A DNA stretch of 64,000 nucleotides from a virus (Duplodnaviria > Caudoviricetes): the IMG/VR virus record IMGVR_UViG_3300035498_000404, positions 1-64,000 of that record; one strand, 5' to 3'. Numbering within the stretch: the stretch's first letter is position 1; every line of letters begins with the position of its first letter. A model generated the notes under the pieces. It was not told where the DNA came from, searched no databases, and saw only the letters and a list, made by a program, of their open reading frames with translations. Position numbers and translations under genes: made by a program. Shown piece by piece: positions 832 to 56,101 of this stretch.

Positions 832-3800
832 TTACGAATCCACCTCAATACCAGTATGTTTTACTCGCATTTCAACTTCCTGTTGCTTCCCTTTATTAAA
901 CGCAGTCTTATAATCATTGGTCAAGTAACCAGTTACTCTGCGTAATCTCCTAATATTACTACTTCCACACATTGGACAAGTATCATTAATTTCATCCGTA
1001 TATCCACAATCTAAACACGAATCATTTGGAACGTTAATTGCAAAATACGGAATATCTTTGTCCATTGCATAATTTACAATTTCCTCAATTGCATCTATAT
1101 TATTTTTTACAGAAGAATCAAGCTCTACGTAATTTATGTCTCCGGCTGAACTATACCCAGTTAATTGACTTTCAATATCAATTTTTTCAAATGGGGTCAT
1201 TTCATGCCACACAGGCACATGAATGGAATTAGTAAAGAAATCTTTATCAGAAACATTCTTAATAACTCCATATTTCGCCTTAAACTTGTTCATAGCAGTA
1301 TAACATAAGTTTTCTGCCAAAAATATTATTTGGACTATATTTTCATCATACTTCACGTATGAGGTCGCTCTTTCGCTTTCGCTACTCTACTTTTCCTTAT
1401 CGGATTTCGATAGTCTCTACACATTTATTATTATCTTGTTCCAAGTAAATTATTTATACAAAAAATAAGTTCCACTTTTAGTCCACTTAGGAATTACATT
1501 ATGATGACATTGTGTTAAAATAGTCTTCTGATTAATTCCGGTTTTTCTACTAGCTTCATAAGTATTCCAATATCGTCCAATTTCTTGATTTGTATTGAGG
1601 TCGTACTGAACAACAATAATTGGTTTTTGAGCAGTTTCATCATCCTGAAATCTAAAATAAAAAGGTTTTCTCACTGGCTTCTTATACTTAGCTTGTCGCA
1701 AAATAGTATTTAAGCCAACACCAGTCTTTAAACTTGCTTCACGACAGCTACCATAAGAACCAAGAAGCTCATTTGTATACGTATCAAACATATATACAGG
1801 ATGCGACTGAGAATCTTCATATCCTTTATTATTTATGAGAAGTCCATCGTCTACTGCCTTTTGTGTATTTTCACTAAAAGTAGTCCAATAAAGATTTTCA
1901 ACCCTATTGTCGTTCTTTATATTATTTTTATGTCCAACAATAGGTAAGTTATCTGGATTTTCAATAAATGTTTCTGCAATTATTATGTGCATTCTTCTTT
2001 TTTTTGTTCTATATATTTTATTCTTAGAATCCACAATATACTTAATTGCCCCATAAACATATCCATTATAATTATTCGTAGTAATACTACTCTTAAAATA
2101 TTTCCCATAATTTTTATGCTTATGTATTACTCCATCAAACCTATTTTTTACTGTTCTAGTTTCAATTCCATACAAATTGCCATCTCTATCAACCCAGTTA
2201 AGTGCCCCTTTTACCTGTCGAGCACCTTCTGGCAACTTATCTATAATTATACTCATATTTCCTCCATTCTAAGAGGAACAAGATAATAAATTTAGCACGG
2301 TATTCCAATCAGGTTCACCGTTTTAAGCGACTTTTTCATTATACATCACTGTATAAGCCCCCACAGATAATATATGTTATAACTCAGGGGTATAATAAAC
2401 ACCAAAATTTAGTTTATATCTATTTTTAAATTCATTGCATCTATCTTTAAACAACTGTTCAATCTCTTTTGCAAGAGCCATGCCCTCTTCGGTAGTCTGG
2501 TCTTTTCCAATAAGAATTTGTAAAGTTTCTGCGAGTCCTAATTGACCAATTGCAAGTGTGCCATGTTTCAAGGCTGAACGAATTCCCTCTTGTGGCACAT
2601 ATCCTTCCATCACACCATTTTCATACATAAATGTTGCAGATTTAGGACTTTGCTTCGCAATATACTCAAACCTCTCAATTAAGCTATCTTTTGCTTCACA
2701 AATCTTTAAATCAAGCAAATTCATAAACTCTGACACATAAGCCACTTGAGAATACATATGATGCCCAGCGTCAACTTTCTCTTTCGCTTCCATAGCAAGA
2801 GTTGGCATAATAATTGTTGTCGGAGCAATATTTCCTCGGCCATCTTTTAATTGACCAAAGCCATTAATGTCATATCCATTAGCAGTTCTACATCCCATAG
2901 TGCTAAAATATGTTTTAGGGTCATTTTTATCATATCCAGCATTTCCGCTCCAATCAACATTCGCATAATTAGGATAAAGACGCTTTGCGGTAGACTTTAA
3001 CGCTAATCTAAACAAATCATAATTAGGGTCGCCGGGCTTTCTATTTACACCCTTCATACACTGGAATATTGAGCAAGGGAATATGGAAGTTCTGTGCATT
3101 TTTCCAATTCCCTCAATTGATATATTTAGAATTTCTTCAATTACCATCCGTCCTTCAGGTTCAGTACAAGTACCGAAATTAATTGAAGTAAACGGCAACT
3201 GATTACCACTTCTTGATTGTAAAGTATTAAGATTATGGAACATACCCTCAACAGCCTGTCGAGTTTCCTTTTTCGTCATATCAAAAGCGTATTTATATAC
3301 ATTGCTCTTATATGAATTTTTATACCAGTCAGACTCGATAGACATTTCTTCTGGCTTACATGGGAACTGCTTATCATCCCAATTAGATTCTGCAATATAT
3401 TTTACACCATTTTTATAATGTTTATAAAAACTCTTTCGCACATAAGGCATCATTGTCCAGTCCAAATGCGTTGCAGAACAACCTCCAAATTGTTGGAGAC
3501 TTTGAAGCTGAAATATCACTGCAACAAGTTGAAAAGCTGTATTTACACTATTTGCAGGACGGACATCCGTTTGTCGAGTATTAAATCCATTCGCAAGGAG
3601 CTTATCAAATGGAATACTAAGACAATTATGTTGCCCAACGGCGTATCGGTCTAAATCATGTATATATACTTCATTATTTTCATGATTTTTACGTGTCTTT
3701 TCTGAAATACAATATTTCAAAGCAAAATGCTTCATAACTGCATTTGCAGCTTCACCAACACGCCCACCAAAACTTGCCTCGTCAACATTCGCATTTTGAT

Positions 3801-7714: not shown

Positions 7715-10700
7715 ATCTTTTTTACATACTAAAATTAAACACTTCAAAAATAATTGAAAGTGATTTGTCTGTTGAAACAGACTTTAAGACATCTAAGAAT
7801 TCAGGAGAAATTGTTGCTTTAGGAGATAATCAAATTCTAAAGTTCATAAGAAAGATTAAAGAAGTAGATTATAGTCCTGATATTATAAAAGATTTATATA
7901 CTAAAAGAAATGAACTTAAACGACAAGAAAAATGTGATACCCAAGAGATAATCAAAGTACAAAATCTTATTAATAAAACTTTATTTGTACCAGATTTACT
8001 TATTGTAAAAACTGATACTACTAAAAAAGATTATAAGTATATTTGTAAAAATGGTTTTTCTGTAAAAATTTCAATTGATGATGTTGTTTATGATATAAAA
8101 TATAAAAGACTTTGTGCTGGTGCTGGTCAACTTAGAAGAAATTCGGCATTTTTTGTGAACGAAGAATTATATGATAGACTTGAACAGATTATGATGTGTG
8201 GACTTACCAAGTCTAAAATTGGCAAAATTAATCTAGCAAAGTTTAGTGCTTATTTTTCTCTTTATGGGTCAGCCACTAACCAAGTGTCTACTCCAAATAT
8301 TTGTGTTGTAAAAGACTTTGAATATCCTCTAAAAGACCAGAAAGTTGACTGGGTATATACTAATGAGGATGGCGATATTGACATCGAAGAAAGAAACATT
8401 GATTTTAATATGAATGCTTTTGACGGCGCTGGCATGATTAGTCCTACTATGGCCGCTATATGGCAATCTGATTTAGGATTGGATTATCTTCCTTCGTCTT
8501 TTATTATTCGCGCCCCATTTATTAAAGGTCTTGTTTCTGTCTTTGATTTTCATAAATTTGCCAAAGAAGTTGCTCATAAAGATACTATTACAGATTTATA
8601 TGGAGAAGAATGGGAAATTGATAAAATTGATGTAATATTAACATCAAGTCAATTTAAAATGTACAAAAAATACGAAAGTTGGAATAAATACGTTTTTTAT
8701 TTTAGAAAATATGGGCATAGATTTGGAGTTGCCAGAGTTAATAAAAAAGAGAGCGACTTTGTTACACCATTAAATTATCAATATATTCAAAGTAATAATT
8801 TTACAGAAGAATCCATTAAACAGTTGGCGCAACCAACAGTTGAATGGATTGACAATGTTCTAAAATGTGACCCTTTATATGCTTCCTTACTTTTAGTAGG
8901 TTGTCATGAAGATAAAACCATTGAAGAAATAGAGAATAGCACAGAATCAGTTTTTGGCAAATGTTTGTTGTATAATTTGGATATTCTAAATGATGATTAC
9001 AATAGGAAAAAAGTTAGAGATATAGCACAAAAGAAAATTGACCAAGCTAAAATTGGCAAACTCTATGTTGAGGGGTCTTATGATTTTGTAATACCTGATT
9101 TATATGCAATGGCTGAACACGCATTTGGAATGGAAGTAAAGGGGCTTCTACCAGCCAAATGTATGTATTCCAGACGTTGGGTCGAAAAGGGCGCTACTAG
9201 GGTTTCTACTCAACGTAGTCCGCTTGTTGCTCCTGCTGAAAATCAAGTAATGAACATTTATTGTGATGATAAATGTAAAGAATGGTTTAAATATATTGTT
9301 TGGGGCAATATATATAGTATTTGGGATTTATCAATAATATCGCAATCAGACGCTAGAAATAGTTGGCGTCTCTAAATTGGGCAAAATCGGTGAAGCCTAA
9401 GTTATTAATAATATGGTAATACCGAGGTAATTTAATAGATTACGAATAGGCTATTAAATACCGTAACGCATAGGTGGTGAATAAATATAATCCACCCACG
9501 AGTGTCTGACAATTCTTTTTTAGAATTGAAAATATATGCTGGGCTTATAGGAAACTATAAGAATTTTGAGATAAAAAGCTCAAAAGACAACAAAAACTGG
9601 ACTTTGACGGTAAATTATATTGCCGTGATTAAACCTCTCTAACTGCGGGAAACTCTTTAGAGGTGAATATACCAAGGCATAATAGTAATATATATGTTGG
9701 CAAATCTAATTAATTTGGTATGGTAAAAAGTATTCACATTAGACAATCCGCAACCAAATATCCTTTTAGGATAGAGGCTCAACGACCATCCAGAAATGGA
9801 GTAGGATAAAAGTTTATCCGAAATGGGAGGCGCTATAAAGCGAAGATATGGTCTATTCTTATATGAGAATATAAGTTGTTTTTAAACAAACAGAGTCAGA
9901 TTAACGACCTGACTAACTATAAAGGATATAGTCCTAACTACTGATAATAAATATTTAATAGACGCTATTAATGAAACATTGCCAGTTATTACTTATGAAA
10001 AGACGAAAGTAAAAGAACAGCGGTTGAATTTTAATAGTTTTCCGACTTGGGATGTAAAAAGTTTTGATAGTCCAATTGGAGGAATTACTAATATAGCCAG
10101 TAATTTATATGCTATGTTGGCTAATTTTGAAGAAGGAACAAGAGAATATGAAGAAATCTCAAAAAGAATAAAAATTATGAGGCTGTTTCAAGGAAATTAA
10201 CATTGTAGTTTCGGTATATAGTAATATATATATAAATAAATTCGGTGAACTCAGAAATCTGAGGTGTGCAGATAAAACTGTGCTAACAGGGAAAATCTAA
10301 ACGGAAACCGCATGATAACCCTGTGCCAAATCAAAATAGTGATATTTTGAAAGGTGCAACGACTAAGACATACATTCTATTTTAGAATATGAAGTCTGTA
10401 CTATTACGGTGCAAATCCGTATAGGAAGTGCCGAACATCCTATTTATTAGGATGAAGATATAGTCTAATCCCTAATATAAATAAGTGGAAACACTGGGTA
10501 TAAATGGCAATAGATGATAAGTTGCCTTTAGCAGTAATGTTAAAGTAAAATTCGGTGAACCTACAAATGTAGGGTGTGCGTATATTACGTGCTAACAGAG
10601 AAAGTCTAAGTAGTTTTATATGATAACTCTGTGCCAAGCAAGAATAGTGATATTCTTGACGGTGAAACGAGCAGAACATACGTTCTTATCTTTTAGAATA

Positions 10701-18119: not shown

Positions 18120-21100
18120 GAAAAGCCACAAAGTTTATATTAGAAGAAGAAAAAAAGTAAATATGTCAAAGACAAAGCGGTTTATGGACAACCTTGAAGC
18201 GTGGACAGCTTATTGGAGAAGCAATCCCCATAGATTTGCAACTGATTATTTAGGATTTAGACTGTATGATTTCCAGAAAGTCCTTTTATATCAAATGTTC
18301 GCACATCCTAGTTTTGTATACGTGGCCTCGCGGGGTCTCGCCAAATCAACGCTTGCCTTGATATTTGCTACTATATATTGTATTTTATATCCGGGAACTA
18401 CAATTGTTATTGTTGCTCCCACTAGAGGACAGTCAACTAGATTTGTTAAGAATATTCAAAATCTAGCTCGTGGCCGTCCTAATATAATGTCTGAAATTAA
18501 ATCAGTTAAAACTGGTTTAAATGAAAGTCGAATAGACTTCTGGAATGATTCGGCTATTGTAACGCTTCCGTACAGTGAAAATGCTCTCGGTGAATAACAG
18601 TATTTATTACTAAAACGCCGCTATCAATGGTAACATTGGTATGATAATTGCAGTAAAAAACTGGAAACCTGAAATGGTAATCAGAGGTGAAGATAATTCT
18701 AAGAATTATCAGCCGCAACGCATAGATGGTGAAAAGATATAATCCATCCAAGAGACTGCAACTGCCAAATATTTGGTAGAAAAGATATGCTGAACTAATG
18801 AGAAAAAAATCATTAGAATTATAGGATAAAAAGCCTATAAGATAACAAATTGGTTAGAGCCAATATTCTTATAGTTGACGAATTCGTTCGTACCGAAAAG
18901 GAAGTTATAAGCCGTGTATTCGTTCCTATGCTTTCTTCTCCTAGAAGCCCAGATTATACTGATTTAACTTCTAAAGAAAGAGAGGCATTACCAGAAGAAC
19001 CAAATAGACAATTATATTTGTCCTCTATTAGAGGCGCAGATGAATGGTCTTATGCCAAGTTCTTACAATATATAGACGAAATGACCAATGGCAATACAGA
19101 ATATACAACTGTTGCTTTACCTTATAATATAGGTGTAAAAAACAGATATATTTCTCGTGCTATTGTTCAACAGTCTTTTAAAGAAAATCAAGATTCTCTT
19201 GAAATGCTATACGCAGAATATACGTGTAGACCAGAGAGAGGTTTAAACAATTCTTTCTACCGTTATGCTGTATTGCAGGAACGGAGAGAAGAAGCTCGTG
19301 CTATGGTGGCTATGAGCGATTTTGAATATTTACAATACAAAGGCGATAAATCTAAGTTTCCATTTTACCAAGAAAAATTGCCGAATGAAATTAGAATTTT
19401 AGCAATGGACGTTGCCTTGGTAGAATCCGCAAAGAACGATTGTAATGTTAGTAATAACATACACAGTCCGCTGCATTTAGAAATTATGCAGTGTATTTCT
19501 CTGAACTGCTGGAAACCCCTTATAGCTTGTATGCTACAACATACGAATGAAAAATGTCGAAGTGTGAATGCTTAAAAAATTACAGGATTGGGAAATCAGC
19601 AACTAAGCCCCGAATAGGGGAAAGCTCAACGACCAATAGTTGAAATACTTATAGGGCAAGTGCCCGAAGTGGAGAACACCTAAGTGTAATTTGTTTTAAG
19701 GTAAATTATATATGGTGAATGATATGGTCTATGCTTATATGAAAATATAAGAAAAATTATTCATGATACAAATAAAAGATAAGGACACTGGAGTAGCTGC
19801 CTTTTTAATGCCCCTAACATTAAATTACTTATCTTTTATTTTTTTATATATATTACACCGTTAGGGAGGTGAGAATATATGATAGTTGGATTTAAAATGG
19901 AAATCCATCCAAATGGATTTCAACAAGAAATATTAAGAGAATATTGCAAAACATATCATAATATGTGGAATTTTTTAGTTGCAAAATATAAAGATAACTT
20001 ACCAGTTGTAAGCAAATATGGAATAAAAGATTTCGATACGAACGATTTAATAAATGAATTTGGGAGTGCTATACCAAAAAGAATCGTTTTGGGTGTTATA
20101 AAAGAATATTCCAGAGCAGTACAAATGGCATATAATAAAGTCGTAAACAGACCTAAGTTTCATAAATACAATCCGAATAAACAATCATTCTACATTGCCA
20201 GCATGACTTATTCTGTAACAAATGGCCGTGCTGTAATCCCATCTTTAGGAAGAGGACGGGAGAATATGTCGTACAGAATTCCATTAGACATAGAATATCT
20301 AAATAAATATAATATCAAAGAAATTATAGAGCCAAGATTTACTTTTTATAAAGGTAAATGGTATATTTCTGGCAGTTATAAAAAATAGGATGTTCAAAAA
20401 TCTAATAAAGAATTTATAGGGCTTGATTGGGGTATAAAAAATTTTATGACTAGTTCTAATGGCGACTTAATAAATTATCCAAATAATGTAACTAGAGAAT
20501 ATTACCGAATAAGAAAAATACAATCACTTCTGGATAAGAAAAAAAGAAAATCTAACAACTACAACAAATTATATAAAAAACTCTGTAACGCATATATAAG
20601 ATTAGAAAACTTAAAAAATGATTTTATAGAAAAAGAAACCACATCTCTATGTAAAAATAATAGCATTGGAGTTGAAGATTTGGAAAACTTAATGCAGTCC
20701 AACAAAATTATAAGAAGACAGAATTTTATATGTCCAAGAAAAAGATTTGTAGACGCATTAATGTGGAAATGTGAAAAATTTGGAAGTTATTTTGTTGTTG
20801 TTAATCCGGCTTATACCTCTCAAAAATGTTGTATATGTGGCAAAATACATAAATTAACATTAAGAGATAGAATAATGATTTGTGATTGTGGTAATATTAT
20901 TGACCGTGATATTAATGCCGCTATTAATATTAAAAATGACGCAATTGCGTCAGTGGGTATTTGTTGTACCTATTAAAAGTCCATAACATGGATAATTCTT
21001 TATATATTTAACGAATGTATAAAGTAATAAAACAGAATACGGCGTTTTGGGTTTTGCGTTTAATTCCTAATGGAAATAAGTATAAAAAGATATTTGCTTA

Positions 21101-22028
21101 TGCAGAGAGTATGAATGGTATTAATTCATTACTACAAACCCTGAGAGCAAAGCAATTGTTTTATGAATTTGACTGCGACTATTTTGTAATAGACGGTGGT
21201 GGCGTAGAAACTGCGCTCCTATTTGGTGACAAATAGGTGATAAATGGGTGTAAAAAACTGGAATTCTGAGAGGAAAATCAGAGCGGAAGTTTGTATTTAA
21301 AAGTATAAACACGCACAACGCATACGAATTGAACCTCGTGAAGAGAATATAATATTCGCAAGAGACACCCACTTCTTTTAGAATAAGAAGAAAAGATATG
21401 CTGAACTTACAGGAATACAACTGTAAGAATTGTGGGATAAAAAGCCCACAAGATAACAAAAGTTGTCGGGAGATTTAAAAAATCTCCCGATTTCTATTGA
21501 GGACAAGGAATTGTAGATATTAGCACTGTTGAGACAGAAGACCCAGTTCGTGGGGAAATTTATCCGGCGTGGACTGTTGCTAATTCTGATGACCTTAAAA
21601 ATATTCATAGAACAATTTCTGAAAATGCTGTACCAATTATGGTGTCTGTTAAAACGGGCATTGCAGATAAAAGTAGAATGCTAGTGCATTCTCGTGATGA
21701 AATGGCAACTAATAATATTTCTTTGCTTGTAGATATGCAAGATGGAATAGATTACTTAAATCAGAACTTTGACTTCTATAAAGTTTCTGATTAGGATTTA
21801 AGAAACAGAGTTTTAGCTCCTTATGCTCAAACTTCTGCTTTTATGAACGAAGCTATTAACTTGAAACAAGTTAGCGTTCAGGGTAGAATTAGTGCAGAAG
21901 AAAAATCAGGCAGACGTAAAGACCGCGTTATGAGCTTGGTTTATGCGCTAGATTATGCCAAATAGCTTGAAGATGGATTAAGTGTCCAGCAGAATAATAG
22001 CTGGGAAGATTATATATTTTTCTCATAA
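18112..22028 (+). CDS. terL: Terminase large subunit, 4 exons: 18112-18591, 18853-19440, 21036-21205, 21500-22028; TAG at 21792 and 21963; about 588 aa
   Basis: Walker A ASRGLAKS; splicing restores ALG|VRANILIVDE, MDVAL..SAKND|NTAF and IDGGGV|GQGIVD; C-terminal RKDRVMSL. Confidence 0.92.
18592..18852 (+). mobile_element. Group I intron TerL-I1 (no ORF)
   Basis: P1 CGGU/GCCG; P7 GCAUA/UAUGC; ends in G; same family as RNAP-I1 and TerL-I3. Confidence 0.88.
19441..21035 (+). mobile_element. Group I intron TerL-I2 carrying tnpB (IStron-like, no transposase)
   Basis: P1 GAU-UGU/ACA-GUC; AACUGCUGGAAAC and AAUCAGCAAC core; P7 GACCA/UGGUC; ORF lies downstream of P7'; ends AACAG. Confidence 0.88.
19879..20976 (+). 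CDS. tnpB: TnpB RNA-guided endonuclease (365 aa via TAG 20386-20388)
   Basis: Readthrough joins the two ORFs in frame and supplies RuvC-I IGLDWGIK; RuvC-II IGVEDL; zinc finger TSQKCCICG..CDCG; RuvC-III DRDINAAINI. Confidence 0.9.
21206..21499 (+). mobile_element. Group I intron TerL-I3 (no ORF)
   Basis: P1 GCGU/GCGC; P7 GCAUA/UAUGC; ends in G. Confidence 0.88.
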
Positions 22029-36704: not shown

Positions 36705-37211
36705 ATGAACGACGGAAAAAGATTTGAATAGAACTTTGCCAATTCTGTTCCAGAACATATATATTTTATGAGGATAAAAGATAGCGCAAATAATTTTGGC
36801 AAAACAAGTACTTCTAAATTTGCAACAGCCAATCCTTTTGATTGCTTTATATTTTACGAAGGGTATCTTATGCCATTAGAATTGAAGTCTACAAAAGGTA
36901 CAAGTTTCAGTATTCAATCTGAAAATCTTGAAAAAGGAAAGGATATAAAATATCACCAGATAGTTGAACTCGCAAAATCAAATCAATTTTAGAATGTTAT
37001 TTCTGGATTTGTTTTTGATTTTAGGATGTCTAACACATATTGGTTAAGCATTGATAATTTTTAGAAGTTTTTAAATAATACGACTAAAAAAAGTATTAAT
37101 GAAAATGATATTGTAAGATATGGCGGTATTTTAATAAATAAGAAAATAATGAGGGTAAATTATAAATATGATATACCTGAATTACTAAAAAGCATTTTAG
37201 AGGTGAATTAA
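36705..37211 (+). CDS. recU: RecU-like Holliday junction resolvase (3 TAGs)
   Basis: MNDGKRFE*NF...NPFDCF...LELKST...IKYHQI...KKSIN; needs readthrough at 36729, 36990 and 37062. Confidence 0.8.
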
Positions 37212-39564: not shown

Positions 39565-42500
39565 ATGGCTGAAAGTATAATATTTAATATAGGTATTGGT
39601 ATTGACGATACTGAAGTAAGACAGGATTTAACAGAAGTTACAAAACAAATACAAGAAGTTTTAAATACAGATTTAAAATTTAATATTAACGCGAATAATA
39701 TTGAGGAATTACAACAGCAAGTAGCTAATCTTGGCGGGCAATTAAATATAGTAAGAGACTCTGTAACTGGTCTTGCCACTGGATTTTCTGTAACGGCAAC
39801 CTCTATAACTGGGCAACTTGTAAATGTGGCTGGTAGTTTTTCAAATTTAAAAACTAGCGCTGATTCATATGTGGCATCTTTAAGTAGTATGCACGACCAA
39901 ATTTCAGGTCAAACAGGGGAACAAAAGGCAATAGCTCAAATTCAATAGGAGTATATTAGTTTATTACAAAAAGAAACTGACATTAAAGAAAAACTAGCTG
40001 TTGCAGTTCAAAATCAAGACACTCAACAAGTAAGTTCTTTGGCAAATCAGCTTGATAAAACTTAGACGTTAATGAACTATGATGCAGAACGACTACAACA
40101 AATACAGGGTATGTCAAATGCTGCAACTACTTTTAACGGTGTTTATGAGCAGATATTTGCAACCACATAGCAATTAGCTAACAGAAATAATGATGCAGAT
40201 GCGTTTTTAGGAACTGATGCTTCTCAAAGAATAATTGATGTTTCTACTAATCTTTCCCAGTTAGATAATACATTACAAGAATATTATTCTCTAAATCAAC
40301 AAGTTTAGAATACTGCTCCGGGAGAATATTGGGATTTATTAGACGCAAAATTAAAACAATTGCAACCAGAATATGATGCTGTTAAAACCAGTATGGAATC
40401 TTTGGGTGTTGTGTTTGCGAATGGTCAGGCTCAATATACTGGGACAGCAGAAGCAGTTCAACAATTAGTTGAAAGATATAATGAGTTAGAGCAACAACAA
40501 AAGGAAAACCAAGCTTAGAAAAATCAAGCTGCTACATATAAAGAAATTACAGATGCGGTTAAGGCTTATTATAAAGCGCTAACTGACGTTAAGAAATCTA
40601 ATAGCGTAGAAGGCTCTGAAACATACAAAGTATTACAGCAAAATTTAACCGCTGCTGCCAATGCTACTGTAACACTTAATGGGAAAACAACTCAATTACA
40701 AGATGTATTTTCTGCTCTTGGTATTACTATATCAAATTATGGTTCAAACTTTACTGCTGCATACAGTGGTAAAAGCCAAGAAATCCAAAAGATTGTTGAT
40801 TTAATTAATCAACAAAGTCAGGCTTACGCCAAGCTTAATGCTCAAAAAGCAGACCAAGCTTCTGATACTGCATTAATTGAAAGTGCCGTAGCGGCATATA
40901 AAAAGTATAGAGACCAATTAGATGTTGTTTATAAATTAAAGAAAAGTGGGAACACTGACTTTACAAGCAACCTAAAAGAAGAAGAAGAACTCTTAAAGCA
41001 GCTTAAAACTGCGTATGAACAAGAAGAACAAGCTCTTCTTAGTAACGGTCAAGAAGTACAGAAAAATACAACTTATAACCGTGATAAAAACCAAGTAACT
41101 AGAGACTCTATTCAGGCTCAAAAAGAGTTTGATTTAAGTTTAAATACAAATTCGCTACAAAATGCTATTGCCTAGACACTACAATACACTATTAGCTTGC
41201 AGGGCTTAAAGACTGCAATTAAAGAAGTTATAGATACAACTCTTGATTTGAACGAATCAATGACGCAAATTCAGCTTGTTACCCAACAAAATAATGATGA
41301 TGCTAAAGAATTAATTCAATCTTATTCAGAATTAGCTAAAAGTTTGGGTACTACAACTGCTGATATAGCTTCTGCAAGCGTTGAGTGGCTTTTTATTAGG
41401 TCACTATAAATCCATTTAACTGCGGGAAACCCCTTAGAGATTAACATACTAAAGGACGATAGAAATATACGTTCTGGCGAGAATAATTACCTCGGTATAG
41501 TAAAAACTGTTAATATTGGGCAATCCGCAACCAAGCCTCTAAAATAGAGGAAGGTTCATCGACTATCCCTTGGTTTCTAAAACGAAACAATAGGAGTACG
41601 GCCAATCGTTAAGGTGGGTGAAAATCCCTTAAATGGAAATGATGGATATTTTAAAGATATTTTAAAATTACTTGACAAAAAGTAATTTTTGTGATATAAT
41701 AGAATAAAGATATAGTCAATACTATGTAGAAATATATAGAAAATTCTGTTTACAGAATCTTTTGAAAAGTAACGATTTTCAGAAGTAATATAATAGACGG
41801 CAGGGCAACAGTATTGAGGAAACTAATGACTTAATTCAAGCGTCTGCAACGCTACAAGTCATTGGTAATATGGAAGCGTCGGATTCCGTAACAGCATTAA
41901 CAGCTTGATTTAGGCTGGGCATATAGTAATATATGCAATAATAAATTCTTTTAACTGCGGGAAACCTCTTAGAGATTAACATACTAAAATATAATAGGGA
42001 TATTATATTGGCGAGAATAATTACCTCGGTATAGTAAAAATTGTTAATATTGGACAATCCGCAACTAAGCACCAAGAACTGGTGAAAGCTCAACGACCAT
42101 CCCATAGGTTCTTTTCAGAACAACAGGAGTACGGCCAATCGTTAAGGTGGGTGAAAATCCCTTAAATGGAAATGGAGAATATCCTACTCTTAGGATAAAG
42201 ATATGGTCTTTTCTTATTAGAAATAATAAGGTGTTTATAAACACATATAAGATTAACGACCTTGTATAAAAATTAAAGGCTATCAACGGCTATGGATTAG
42301 AAGCTTCCGACGCAATGCAGATAGTAGACCAATTAACTACACTAGATTTGAAGTTTGCAGCTTCTTCCGGTGATATAGCGACAGCTCAACTATTAAGGGC
42401 TGGGTGTGCAGTAATGTACATAATAATAAATTCTTTTAACTGCGGGAACTTCCTTAGAGATTAACATACTAAAATATGATAGGAATATACATATTGGCGA

Positions 42501-45500
42501 GAATAATTACCTCGGTATAGTAAAAATTGTTAATATTGGACAATCCGCAACTAAGCACCAAGAACTGGTGAAAGCTCAACGACCATCCCATAGGTTCTTT
42601 TCAGAACAACAGGAGTACGGCCAATCGTTAAGGTGGGTGAAAATCCCTTAAATGGAAATGGAGAATATCCTAAAAATAATTATAAAAGACTTGACAAAAA
42701 GAAATAAATATGATATAATTACTGTTATAGGATAAAGATATGGTCTTTTCTTATTAGAAATAATAAGGTGTTTGTTTGTATTATGGAGATGAAAATGATT
42801 ATTTCAAAATTTGTAAATATAAGAATGGTTAGTCAAAATATTAAATATTATAGAGATTTGGGGTATGAATTTAATAACGGTGAAACAATTCCTATCAAAA
42901 TTGAAGATATTGGAAATGGAAATCGAGCATCCGTAAAGGTTAAATGTGACTATTGTGGGGATGAATATGAAGCACAATATGCAAATATTATGAATGGCAG
43001 AAAGATTTTAAACAAAGACGCTTGCAAGAAATGTGGGCATAAAAAGAGAGAAGAAATTTTGTTGCTTTTATACGGAGTAAAAAATCCTATGCAGTTGCAG
43101 GAAATAAAAAATAGGCAACAAGATTCATTGGAAGCTCATTACGGAGTGAGAGTTCCGGCAAAAAATAAAGATATTTCAAAAAAACAAGCAGAATCTTTTA
43201 AAAAATCTTATGGTATTGGTAGTGATGGATATGACGAGTATCAGACCAAACGAAGAAAAACCTGTATTGATAAATATAGCGTTGACAATGCCTCGAAATT
43301 AGAAGAATTTAAAGATAAAGCTGCGAAAACTTGTTTGGAAAAATATGGTGTAGAGCATCCATGTCAAAATCCAGACATTATGGAGAAATTTATAGAAACT
43401 TGCAATGAAAAATATGGTGTTGATTATTATTTGCTGACAAAGGATAAACAAATAAAAACCACAAAAACCTGTATGGATAAATATGGAGCAATAAATATTT
43501 CAAAAACTGATTATTGGAAAGAAAAGGTAAATAATTCAGTTATGGAAAGATATGGTACAAAATGGGTCGGAGAATCAAAAGAAATTCAAGATAAAATAAA
43601 GAAAACGAATATGGAAAGATATGGCGTTGAGTGCGTCTTTTCGTTGGAAGAAATTCGTTTAAAGTCAAGAAAAACTATGCTTGAAAAATATGGTTCAATA
43701 ATGCCCCAATGCGTTAGTTCTCAACAAAATTATATTCATAGTATATATGGTGGAGAATTAAATAAACAAATTGGAAAATATGTTGCTGACATTTTATTTA
43801 CAGATGAACGTATTGATTTTGAATATGACGGTGGAGGACACGATTTAAGTATTAGGCTTGGAGCTATATCTGAAAATAATTTTATAGACAAAGAAACAAT
43901 CAGGAATAATTATTTTATAAAAAATGGTTATAAAATTTTTAGAATTATTTCCAAAAAAGATAGATTACCAAACGATTCAATCCTTATCGAAATAAAAAAT
44001 AAAGCTTTTGAAGTTTTATTAAATACAGAAAATAATATTTATACTTATAATATAGATAATAACACAGAAGAATACAAACAAATCAATGTGGAATAACGAC
44101 CCACATTAAAAATTTATACTTTCTAAAGTTGCATCTGTGGCCTCACAATCCGGTGTTTCACTGGAAAAACTAGAATCAATTCTGGTTGTCACAGAAGACC
44201 AAACACAGCAATCGGCAGACACCATTAACAAAACAGTGGTGTATAAATCAATTCTAATATTTATGCGAAAATCCAGAGATGGACAACGCTTCGGAAGGTA
44301 AATTACCGCCGACAACGACTGAATGAATTGACCAAATTTATTTTGGATGCAACAGTCTGAACACATAATATAATCGAACAATGAAATATGTGAATAGGAG
44401 TCATTGGTAATCAGACCAATTAAAGAAGAACTTCTATCGCCTACTATAAAGTAGGTCACAAAAGTAACAGAATGTGGTAATGCTAAATGTTCTTGGCATG
44501 GCACATAGTAATATGTGCAATAATTAATCCCTTTAATTGCGGGAAACCCCTTAGAGATTAACATACTAAAATATAATAGGAATATTATATTGGCGAAAGT
44601 AACTATTTCGGTATAGTAAAAATTGTTAATATTGGGCAATCCGCAGCTAAGTGTTCAGAACGGACAAAAGTTCATCGACTATCCAATAGCTTTCAAATAA
44701 GCAACAGGAGTACGGCCAATTGTTTAGGTGAGTGAGAATCTCTTAAATGGAAATGGGGGACATCCTATTATTTAGGATGAAGATATAGTCAAAACTTGTT
44801 AGAAATAATAAGAACTTATATTAAAAATATAAATCATTGAAAGAATCTTATTTTTAATATAGGTTGCATAAAAATAACGAACTTATGTTAATTAATTGTG
44901 GAACAGTATTTTTGCCAGAATGTCGAAAATTGCTGCTGGTAAAGACCTTGAAGACACCGAGGTAACGCTAAATGATGTCGATAAGGTCTTAACCAAAATG
45001 AATATTAGTCTAAAGGATGAACAGGGTCAAATTCGTGACCTTGACGATGTTCTTGACGAAGTTGCAGGTCGTTGGGACACCTTTACGACAAATGAAAAGA
45101 ACCAAATTAGTACGGCTATCGCGGGCACACGACAAGCCAACTATTTTAAGGCCGCAATGGCCGACTGGGGAGAAGTTCTTGACGGTACGCAAATTGCATT
45201 AGACGCAAATGGTACGGCCACAGAGCGTATGGGTATTTATACCGAATCCCTAGGAGGTAAAATTAAGACCTTAAAGGCTACTTGGGAAGAATTTGTAGCC
45301 GATTTAAATTTGGACGATGTTATCTCTAATGTAATTAGTACAGCACAAAATCTATTAGAGATTTTTGATACTATAATAAATAAAAGCGGTGTTTTAAGTA
45401 CCGTAATTAAAGGAGTTCTTGTTGCACAAGGACTAAATATTTTATCTGGCGCTGTTGTAAAGGTTCTTGGTACACTAACTGGTAGTGGTGGATTATTAAG

Positions 45501-54290: not shown

Positions 54291-54316
54291 TTTTTAAGAT
54301 TGGAGTGTGCTTAATA

Positions 54317-56101
54317 ATGAATTTAGATAGTGTTCCAATTAAATATGTGTTAGATTCAAATAACACACTTCATTAGATTGATTACGAAACATTAGCAAAT
54401 TTACCTAATGGGTTAAAAAATCCATATGAATTAATAATTTTTGGTACTTCTTATGATGGTTCTAAAGAAATATCAATTGAAAAACAAATTGCTTCTAATG
54501 ACTTAGTGGGATTTGTAAAGCCAGTGAATGTTTCTTCTGAAATGACAACTCCCGTTGGCATAAATGAACAAGGAAGGCTATTTACGACAAGTCAAAAAGT
54601 TGATTCATTTTTGTCTAAAGATAGCACAAACTCGGTTTAGAATTCTGTGATTACTTAGAATATTTTTAAACTAGAAGATGAATTAGATAATAAAATAAGT
54701 GAAGAGAGCTTTAATAAAGTTGTTTCTGAAACGAACAACAAAATATAGAATTTACAAAATGATTATTTAAATAAGATTAGTTCCGTATCTTAGAATTTAG
54801 AAAATTATAAATCAGAGACAAATGAAACAATTGATTTAATACAATAGGATTCCAAAACAAAACCAATATCATTAGTTTTTGAAGATTATAATTCATTGTC
54901 TAATTGGTTGTCTATTCAGGACAATTTGTCGAAAATTGAATCTGGCGCTACTTTTTATTTGATACAGGGGGATACAGATTACTTTTGGGACGGAAATACA
55001 ATAAGAACCATTAAAGGCTCTGGCAATAGTAATTCAAATGGTTTATAGGACTATTTATCTCAAGTTAATCCAACAGGAATTGGTAGTTTTCAAATGAACT
55101 CTTCTGGCGCTATTGGAAAATATTCTGTTTCTCTTGGATATAATTCGGTAGCTTCTGGAACTTGTTCAACTGCAATCGGTTTAGGAGTAATATCTTCTTA
55201 GAATAACCAATTTGTATGTGGAAAGTATAATATTGAAGATACTGATAACAAATATTTATTTATAGTTGGTAATGGAGCTTCTGATAATAATAAGAGCAAT
55301 GCCTTTTCTGTTACTTCTGATGGAAATATAAGTTCGTACTAGGATGTTATAGCATTTTATTCTGATAAATATTATGCGAATGATACATATTGTAATTTTA
55401 CATATAATATTTCTTCATTTAATGGAACGTTAAATATGTCGTGGGATGGATTTGCTCTTGCGGTTTCCGGTGTTTCTGGTGATTATAAATTTGAATATAC
55501 TGGTGAGCATTGGTATTGTTCTTAGGTTGACTTATCATATATTGCAGATGAAACAACACAAGAAATAGGATGGTTTCCAATAAGTATAATTGGCATTTCT
55601 TTTGTTGATGAAAATGAAGAAGAGATAAACGAAGATACCATATCTTTTTCAAAAGGAGACTATATATTTGTTCATTTTCTTGCTCTCGAAGCTATAAGCT
55701 TGCGAGAATTGTATAATTATACTCATTTTGGATTAAGTTCTTCTACTGAAAATATTACAAAACTAGAAGAAAATGTCTCTACTTTACAAGAAAATTCAGA
55801 AAAATATATTTCAGAAATATCTTAGGCTATAAACGATTCTGAAAAAATTAAATATAGTATTAAAAATATAAATGATATAGAATTATCAAATATCACATTA
55901 AATTCTGTTACCAGTGAAAAAGCTGGTCTAATGTCCTCTACTGATAAAAACAATTTAGAACAATTAATAAAAGATATTGAATCCATAAAAAAAGAAATTG
56001 AATCAATCAAAGAAAGATTAGATAAGCTTGAAAATCCAGATTCAGATAAAGATACTGATTCCGGTGAAGAATCTACTGATAAATCAAATACTAATAAATA
56101 A
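54317..56101 (+). CDS. Tail fibre/adhesin-like protein, 594 aa with 11 in-frame TAGs (absent from the ORF track)
   Basis: No TAA or TGA in frame for 1.78 kb; YadA-head-like SVSLGYNSVASG..STAIG, GKYN..LFIVGNG..SNAF and AGLMSSTDK motifs. Confidence 0.82.

Follow-up and report, generated by a model that had tools for sequence, protein, structure and literature searches.

Among the closest known relatives of the element reported here are the group A IStrons (CdISt1/CdiIStrons) of Clostridioides difficile and related species, in which a 5' group I ribozyme is followed by an IS200/IS605-type tnpB and a structured right end, and in which the ends of the element are also the splice sites (PMC4227781, PMC10690162). 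These elements insert after a ...GAT pentanucleotide and end in ..CAG, with TTGAT, ATTAT or TTTAT listed as the 5' flank and TCAG as the 3' end (PMC4227781). Their TnpA is usually missing, with none of the eight IStrons of C. difficile 630 carrying a full TnpA and a mix of copies with and without the intron reported for the same strain (PMC10690162); furthermore, IStrons containing only ORF B were listed in 2014 (PMC4227781), and a 2026 review proposes intron homing for TnpA-less IStrons (PMC13565253). Here we describe a 1595-nt insertion at positions 19441-21035 of terL, the terminase gene, in a 64-kb stretch of DNA from an uncultured phage (the window), which forms the first part of the 102,894-bp IMG/VR virus record IMGVR_UViG_3300035498_000404 (completeness rating 97%). 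It shares with group A IStrons the order of its parts, its splice-site ends, its position after ...GAT and its ..CAG terminus, and its family likewise lacks TnpA and includes intron-less siblings in the same genomes. Unlike the described group A members, it resides in a phage, within the essential terL gene, has no tnpA remnants, and carries a tnpB with a TAG sense codon. We consider it likely that this is a transposase-less, group A-like IS200/IS605 IStron inserted after GAT in terL, which would be retained or spread by the RNA-guided mechanism proposed below.

Four other systems bear comparison. CboIStron, an IS607-type group B element, has been studied experimentally (PMC10690162, PMC13521648) and resembles the terL element in that its omega-RNA extends over the 3' splice site, only one of the intron and guide-RNA folds can form at a time, and its transposon-adjacent motif (TAM) coincides with the 5' splice-site pairing. 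It differs in having a serine-recombinase TnpA, a TGGG TAM with G at the splice site, a ...CGG end and a TnpB of another subfamily. CbISt3 and CbISt4, from the Clostridium botulinum phages c-st and D-1873, are also IStrons of phage genomes (PMC4227781), although they are IS607-type, retain ORF A or a remnant of it and lie in toxin-converting prophage-plasmids, whereas the terL element lies in a TAG-recoded SPbeta-like phage. ISDra2 TnpB (8BF8/8EXA; PMC10055086) aligns with the protein encoded here across the RuvC D/E/D residues and the zinc finger and has a TTGAT-like TAM 5' of the left end, similar to the one predicted here; its guide derives from the right-end flank and its function is to reinstall the element after loss, a likeness that is predicted for the terL element. 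ISDra2 nevertheless has its own TnpA and no intron, and the protein identity is distant (phmmer E 1e-18, C-terminal half). Lastly, classical phage homing introns, such as T4 td with I-TevI and the introns of the SPbeta group, also occupy a conserved motif of an essential gene, hold a nuclease ORF in a peripheral loop and spread through cleavage of the empty allele during co-infection, as would be expected of the terL element, but they use a protein-only endonuclease, whereas this element encodes an RNA-guided TnpB and as a unit is not tied to one site.

Within the window terL is broken into several pieces, and the limits of the element were taken from intron-less homologues. Exons 2 and 3 are contiguous in the phage record MT835481.1 (21786-22379 and 22380-22553) and in SPbeta-like Bacillus phages, and because the exons abut there the insertion spans exactly 19441-21035, splitting the conserved motif K-N-D/N-T-A, with U as the last base of the 5' exon and G as the last base of the intron. 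When the four terL pieces were compared by tblastn with 41 IMG/VR TerL relatives, the junction between exons 2 and 3 was uninterrupted in all 38 with ≤79% amino acid identity, and no ORF-less intron was found at this site in any of the relatives. The same 1595-nt insertion at the same site was seen only in the near-identical contigs L013-L015, giving an occupied lineage of four contigs that are ~98% identical. The features of the locus, all on the plus strand, are as follows.

18850-19440, plus strand: terL exon 2, ending ...AAG AAC GAT (K-N-D) and matching PHROG 15503 / terminase.
19441-21035, plus strand: the whole IStron, consisting of ribozyme, tnpB and structured right end.
19438-19440, plus strand: GAT at the end of the 5' exon, which pairs with the internal guide of the intron (U.G at the splice site) and is also the predicted TnpB TAM.
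19438-19468, plus strand: P1 helix, GAUUGU (19438-19443) with ACAGUC (19463-19468), in the minimum-free-energy fold.
19451-19751, plus strand: group I ribozyme core, through the P9 hairpin (Rfam RF00028, Intron_gpI, 52.8 bits, E 1e-12).
19755-19765, plus strand: 5' strand of a long-range helix that closes the ORF-bearing loop.
19879-20976, plus strand: tnpB, 365 codons, with an in-frame TAG at 20386-20388 (codon 170).
20919-21035, plus strand: right end and predicted omega-RNA scaffold with four hairpins, its TAATAAAACAG tail ending at the 3' splice-site G.
20987-20997, plus strand: 3' strand of the long-range helix, overlapping scaffold hairpin 3.
21036-21207, plus strand: terL exon 3, starting N-T-A-F-W..., downstream of the element and taken as 21036-21233 when mapped onto MT835481.1.
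21036-21051, plus strand: predicted guide/target AATACGGCGTTTTGGG, the first 16 nt of the 3' exon.

The match to the group I model, which has a gathering score of 50, was obtained by searching a 500-nt stretch, while searches of the whole window and of 8 kb missed this core; the apparent absence of a core was a speed-filter artefact and was dismissed. Folding of 19429-19770 gave a z-score of -4.0, with the exon GAU and intron UGU pairing with ACAGUC and a small hairpin (19445-19460) nested inside P1. This P1 layout is common to seven relatives, in which AGUC is invariant and the nested hairpin covaries, and likewise the same ribozyme, with an invariant AGUCCGC, lies upstream of tnpB in seven TnpB relatives. 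In P1 the AGUC pairs with exon GAU, and the covarying long-range helix places the 3' splice site next to the core. Just 113 nt separate the ribozyme from tnpB in the window, with no tnpA remnants between them. Capture of a TnpB cassette by one of the phage's own introns was considered and rejected, as the ribozyme has only short core blocks in common with the other introns of the window. Group A IStrons have ribozymes of subtype IA2; the likeness of the present ribozyme to further phage introns was confined to short stretches of the core.

The tnpB stop codon finishes 59 nt upstream of the 3' splice site. Its product matches Pfam OrfB_IS605 (PF01385) and Cas12f1-like_TNB (PF07282), together with PHROG 506, and scores 167 bits against the NCBIfam guided_TnpB model (cut-off 100), with the IS200_TnpB model (107 bits) scoring above IS607_TnpB (64 bits). 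In an alignment with ISDra2 TnpB (8BF8), residues D183, E266 and D344 and the CxxC...CxC finger fall on its catalytic residues, and 12 relatives (53-68% identity) all keep the triad and the finger cysteines (C317, C320, C335 and C337) unchanged. A base-by-base comparison with L013 gave 10 differences across the 1595 nt, with none in the ribozyme region (19441-19878, 0/438) or the right-end tail (0/59), which makes 0/497 for the two together, while exon 2 differed at 22/588 positions. All 10 fall in tnpB and comprise 8 synonymous and 2 non-synonymous changes, counts by which tnpB is under purifying selection.

On sequence evidence TAG is a sense codon in this phage: a RecU-like resolvase gene that contains three TAGs matches its PHROG over the full length, and the tape measure, tail genes and the C-terminal exon of terL are joined across TAG in the same manner. 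TAG is also read as sense in many other plus-strand genes, for example at window positions 36705-37208, 54305-56098 and 39565-41406, with a maximum across the whole genome (G000) of 11 TAGs in a single 598-codon frame. The TAG in tnpB is fixed in four assemblies. In other recoded phages the tnpB relatives contain between one and six in-frame TAGs, some of which align with Gln in paralogues, and invariably stop at TAA. Codon 170 is itself variable: relatives have E, P, S, I, N or D there, and in the window copy it is probably decoded as Gln. Since the phage reads TAG as sense, tnpB is intact under the phage's own code, and a pseudogene status on account of the TAG was rejected given its fixation in the four assemblies and the relatives with up to six such codons.

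The right end was examined with RNAalifold and pair counts over the last 210 nt of 13 aligned copies. Of the cells in the predicted pairs, 93% were paired, compared with 77% in shuffled alignments and 35-50% when partners were slid, and 18 pairs showed compensatory changes; none of 500 shuffles matched the observed values. In the window the hairpins lie at 20919-20949, 20952-20974, 20979-20993 and 20995-21028, and this covariation supports four hairpins in the last 130 nt, the kind of structure that an omega-RNA scaffold and right end should have. The long-range pairing of 19755-19765 with 20987-20997 is kept, with compensatory changes and differing sequences, in 11 relatives or copies, and the duplexes have a mean of -12.5 kcal/mol compared with -5.2 ± 2.4 for shuffled 5' strands. 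The 3' strand of this helix also makes up half of hairpin 3, so the RNA can adopt the intron fold or the guide-RNA fold but not both, the same conflict that has been described for IStrons (PMC10690162). From the architecture of IS200/IS605 omega-RNAs (PMC10055086, PMC10690162), the guide is predicted to be the start of exon 3, and this 16-nt sequence occurs once in the genome.

Relatives of the TnpB (45-68% identity) are all metagenome proteins, and those on long contigs neighbour SPbeta-type genes (YonG, YonJ, YonD, YomU, YomV and YomW). At all seven distinct sites that could be placed the left end is directly preceded by GAT, within ACGAT (window), ATGAT, AGGAT, TTGAT, TAGAT or GAGAT. Among 14 right ends placed, 13 finish in ..A(A/C)A(C)AG (12 in ..ACAG and one in ACTG) and one intron-less copy finishes in ...CACAT, with unrelated sequences beyond the right ends among the copies. 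At five further family sites an ORF is restored once the element is taken out, and some copies without the ribozyme still keep tnpB and the right end. Because they are found together after GAT at unrelated sites and in unrelated genes, the ribozyme, tnpB and right end form one IS-like mobile unit. By this distribution the terL element is a member of a phage-resident IStron family, and is neither a terminase intron with a captured nuclease nor a homing element of a fixed site. The common ends, GAT flanks and unrelated sequences beyond also bear out a TAM of ...GAT and a guide from exon 3 as predictions, as the original prediction had proposed. That prediction was made from the DNA of the window alone and proved accurate on the anatomy of the locus, namely the intron limits, the group I core, the three RuvC acidic motifs and zinc finger, the complementary pair bracketing the ORF, the distance from the ORF to the 3' splice site, and the lack of TnpA or a serine recombinase.

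In the diverged phages L062 (2030-3656) and L076 (2023-3654) the IStron follows ATGAT directly at the very start of a gene, with the start codon in the 5' exon and the remaining ORF in the 3' exon. An 81-kb TAG-recoded phage contig (G002, IMGVR_UViG_3300031867_000033) holds three TnpB copies (L055, L059 and L061), one with a ribozyme and two without, having 1-4 in-frame TAGs. A single 119.6-kb contig bears two 99.2%-identical copies (L078 and L079) at two sites.

No match to Pfam Y1_Tnp (PF01797) or Resolvase was found in the 102.9-kb genome or in four related contigs. The absence of a Y1 TnpA or its remnants from the element is not disqualifying, as group A members are often without TnpA (PMC10690162, PMC4227781), and the statement in the original prediction that IStrons normally carry a transposase is outdated in light of the C. 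difficile 630 elements. A free-standing Y1 TnpA was seen on a related 108-kb phage-like contig of an 'Eubacteriales' metagenome-assembled genome (G006:C3:64095-64463, L083). The contig also encodes four homologues of TnpB, including one with 57% identity to the window protein, and this TnpA is a possible source of trans-mobilisation for the family.

Drawing on IS200/IS605 and IStron biology (PMC10055086, PMC10690162, PMC13565253), we propose that terL pre-mRNA would have two fates, either splicing, which would restore terL, or, for RNA left unspliced, binding by TnpB and processing into an omega-RNA that would use the first ~16 nt of exon 3 as its guide. The TnpB-omega-RNA complex would then cut terL alleles reading ...GAT/AATACGGCG..., that is, the unoccupied sites of sister phages in the same infection or of genome copies from which the element has been lost, and recombinational repair off the occupied copy would reinstall the element, amounting to retention or homing. 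The occupied allele would be spared because the target there is preceded by CAG and not GAT. For new GAT sites, a Y1 TnpA would be needed in trans, from the host or from another element.

Some observations weigh against this proposal. Splicing, omega-RNA formation and cleavage are all steps that we infer by analogy with studied elements. The flank differs from that of the described group A IStrons, being ACGAT here and NNGAT in the family with TTGAT at one site, a match in GAT but not in the two leading positions, and the element ends in ACAG where theirs end in TCAG, so that CAG is common to both but the T is not. None of the six tRNAs found by ARAGORN in the 102.9-kb genome is a CUA suppressor, and no convincing sigma-70 promoter was detected upstream of the window's tnpB, although a TTGAC..TATAAT pair is present in relatives. 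Divergence at four-fold sites was 3/97 in the element and 25/326 in the flanks (p = 0.16), which does not firmly indicate a younger age for the element. Furthermore, searches of viral and metagenome contigs with exact DNA patterns of the empty and occupied alleles returned only the three known viral contigs and nothing from metagenome contigs, and the collections searched held no empty allele with the exact target. Relatives mismatch the predicted target at 3-6 of 16 positions, and hence no natural homing substrate was seen.

A broader reading, which we regard as possible but doubtful, would take these TnpA-less IStrons to be a phage-adapted lineage in which TnpB-omega-RNA is the sole mobility engine, driving RNA-guided homing between co-infecting phages, with TnpB synthesis made late by the TAG codon and new GAT sites within phage genomes colonised independently of TnpA, through reverse splicing, for instance, or repair at targets that match in part. 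Such a lineage is compatible with the two near-identical copies, L078 and L079, of a single phage.

The alternative that survives best against a group A-like IStron maintained by its nuclease is that the element is a passive passenger, inserted on a single occasion by a trans-acting TnpA, harmless through splicing and only rarely lost precisely, with a TnpB that is of no use to the phage. The confinement of the insertion to one narrow lineage of four contigs would agree with this, as would the failure of our searches to find a cleavable empty allele, a suppressor tRNA or a promoter. Set against it are the purifying selection on tnpB, the invariance of the catalytic residues across relatives of 53-68% identity, the covariation of the right-end RNA structure, and a tnpB that gained or kept a TAG sense codon without decay, and we judge it unlikely.

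Less probable again, and in our view very unlikely, is that a resident group I intron of the terminase gene gained a free TnpB in its endonuclease slot and homes, guided by RNA, only at the fixed terL site. This was the core of the original prediction, and it draws on the position of TnpB downstream of P9, in a loop that a conserved helix closes, on the lack of a transposase, and on an insertion site of the kind that homing introns usually occupy, a conserved motif of the catalytic domain. The distribution of the element argues otherwise and largely refutes it: the whole unit of ribozyme, tnpB and right end moves to unrelated genes and was found at at least six other unrelated GAT sites, which speaks against a TnpB lodged in the slot of a terminase intron and against homing at one fixed site, and terL itself is empty at this position in the 38 more distant relatives. 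The limited resemblance of the ribozyme to the phage's other introns, described above, also counts against it, and the same intron with and without TnpB, expected in related phages, was not recovered, as no ORF-less version occurs at the terL site among the TerL relatives. The original prediction had also named close TnpB homologues with IS ends and TnpA at unrelated sites as a sign of chance insertion into an intron; such homologues do exist with the same IS ends at unrelated sites, but they are without TnpA. The least probable alternative, regulatory co-option of the element, could appeal to the repression of splicing by TnpB and the omega-RNA fold in published IStrons (PMC10690162), to the exclusion of scaffold hairpin 3 by the long-range helix, and to a TAG codon that would postpone TnpB synthesis until TAG is decoded, but it leaves aside a RuvC triad and a zinc finger that are intact and invariant, although a protein serving only to bind RNA would have no need of them, and the presence of the element in unrelated genes of other phages.

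The phage is unusually rich in introns. Small terL introns of 253-292 nt lie at window positions 18593-18852 and 21208-21499 and, in L013, at 2999-3251 (inserted between window positions 18344 and 18345), and their presence varies between the window phage and L013-L015, to which it is ~98% identical. These small introns share homology with each other, with window 9376-9595 and with genome positions 75026-75203 (minus strand), and by this homology the other terL gaps are members of a small intron family, although Rfam gave no match to the small introns or other terL gaps even at E ≤ 1. Seven substitutions are clustered in the final 45 nt before the insertion site occupied only in L013, which looks like a co-conversion tract. 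At window 9602-10487 and 41361-44812, in the regions of the RNA polymerase and the tape measure, six more group I introns are at or above the Rfam gathering score.

IStrons and the role of TnpB in retention or homing are established, and TnpA-less IStrons, ORF-B-only IStrons, phage IStrons and the idea of homing are already in print (PMC4227781, PMC10690162, PMC13565253). What is modestly new here is a nuclease gene written in the recoded genetic code of its phage, and a relaxed NNGAT flank. The terL locus offers a clean natural test case, being compact, with exact ends in an essential phage gene, a predicted TAM and 16-nt guide, a competing intron/guide-RNA helix backed by covariation, and a nuclease gene adapted to the recoded code. 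The family to which it belongs populates SPbeta-like phages of gut and animal metagenomes, supplies many natural TAM-guide pairs for comparison, and shows that phage introns routinely carry RNA-guided nucleases.

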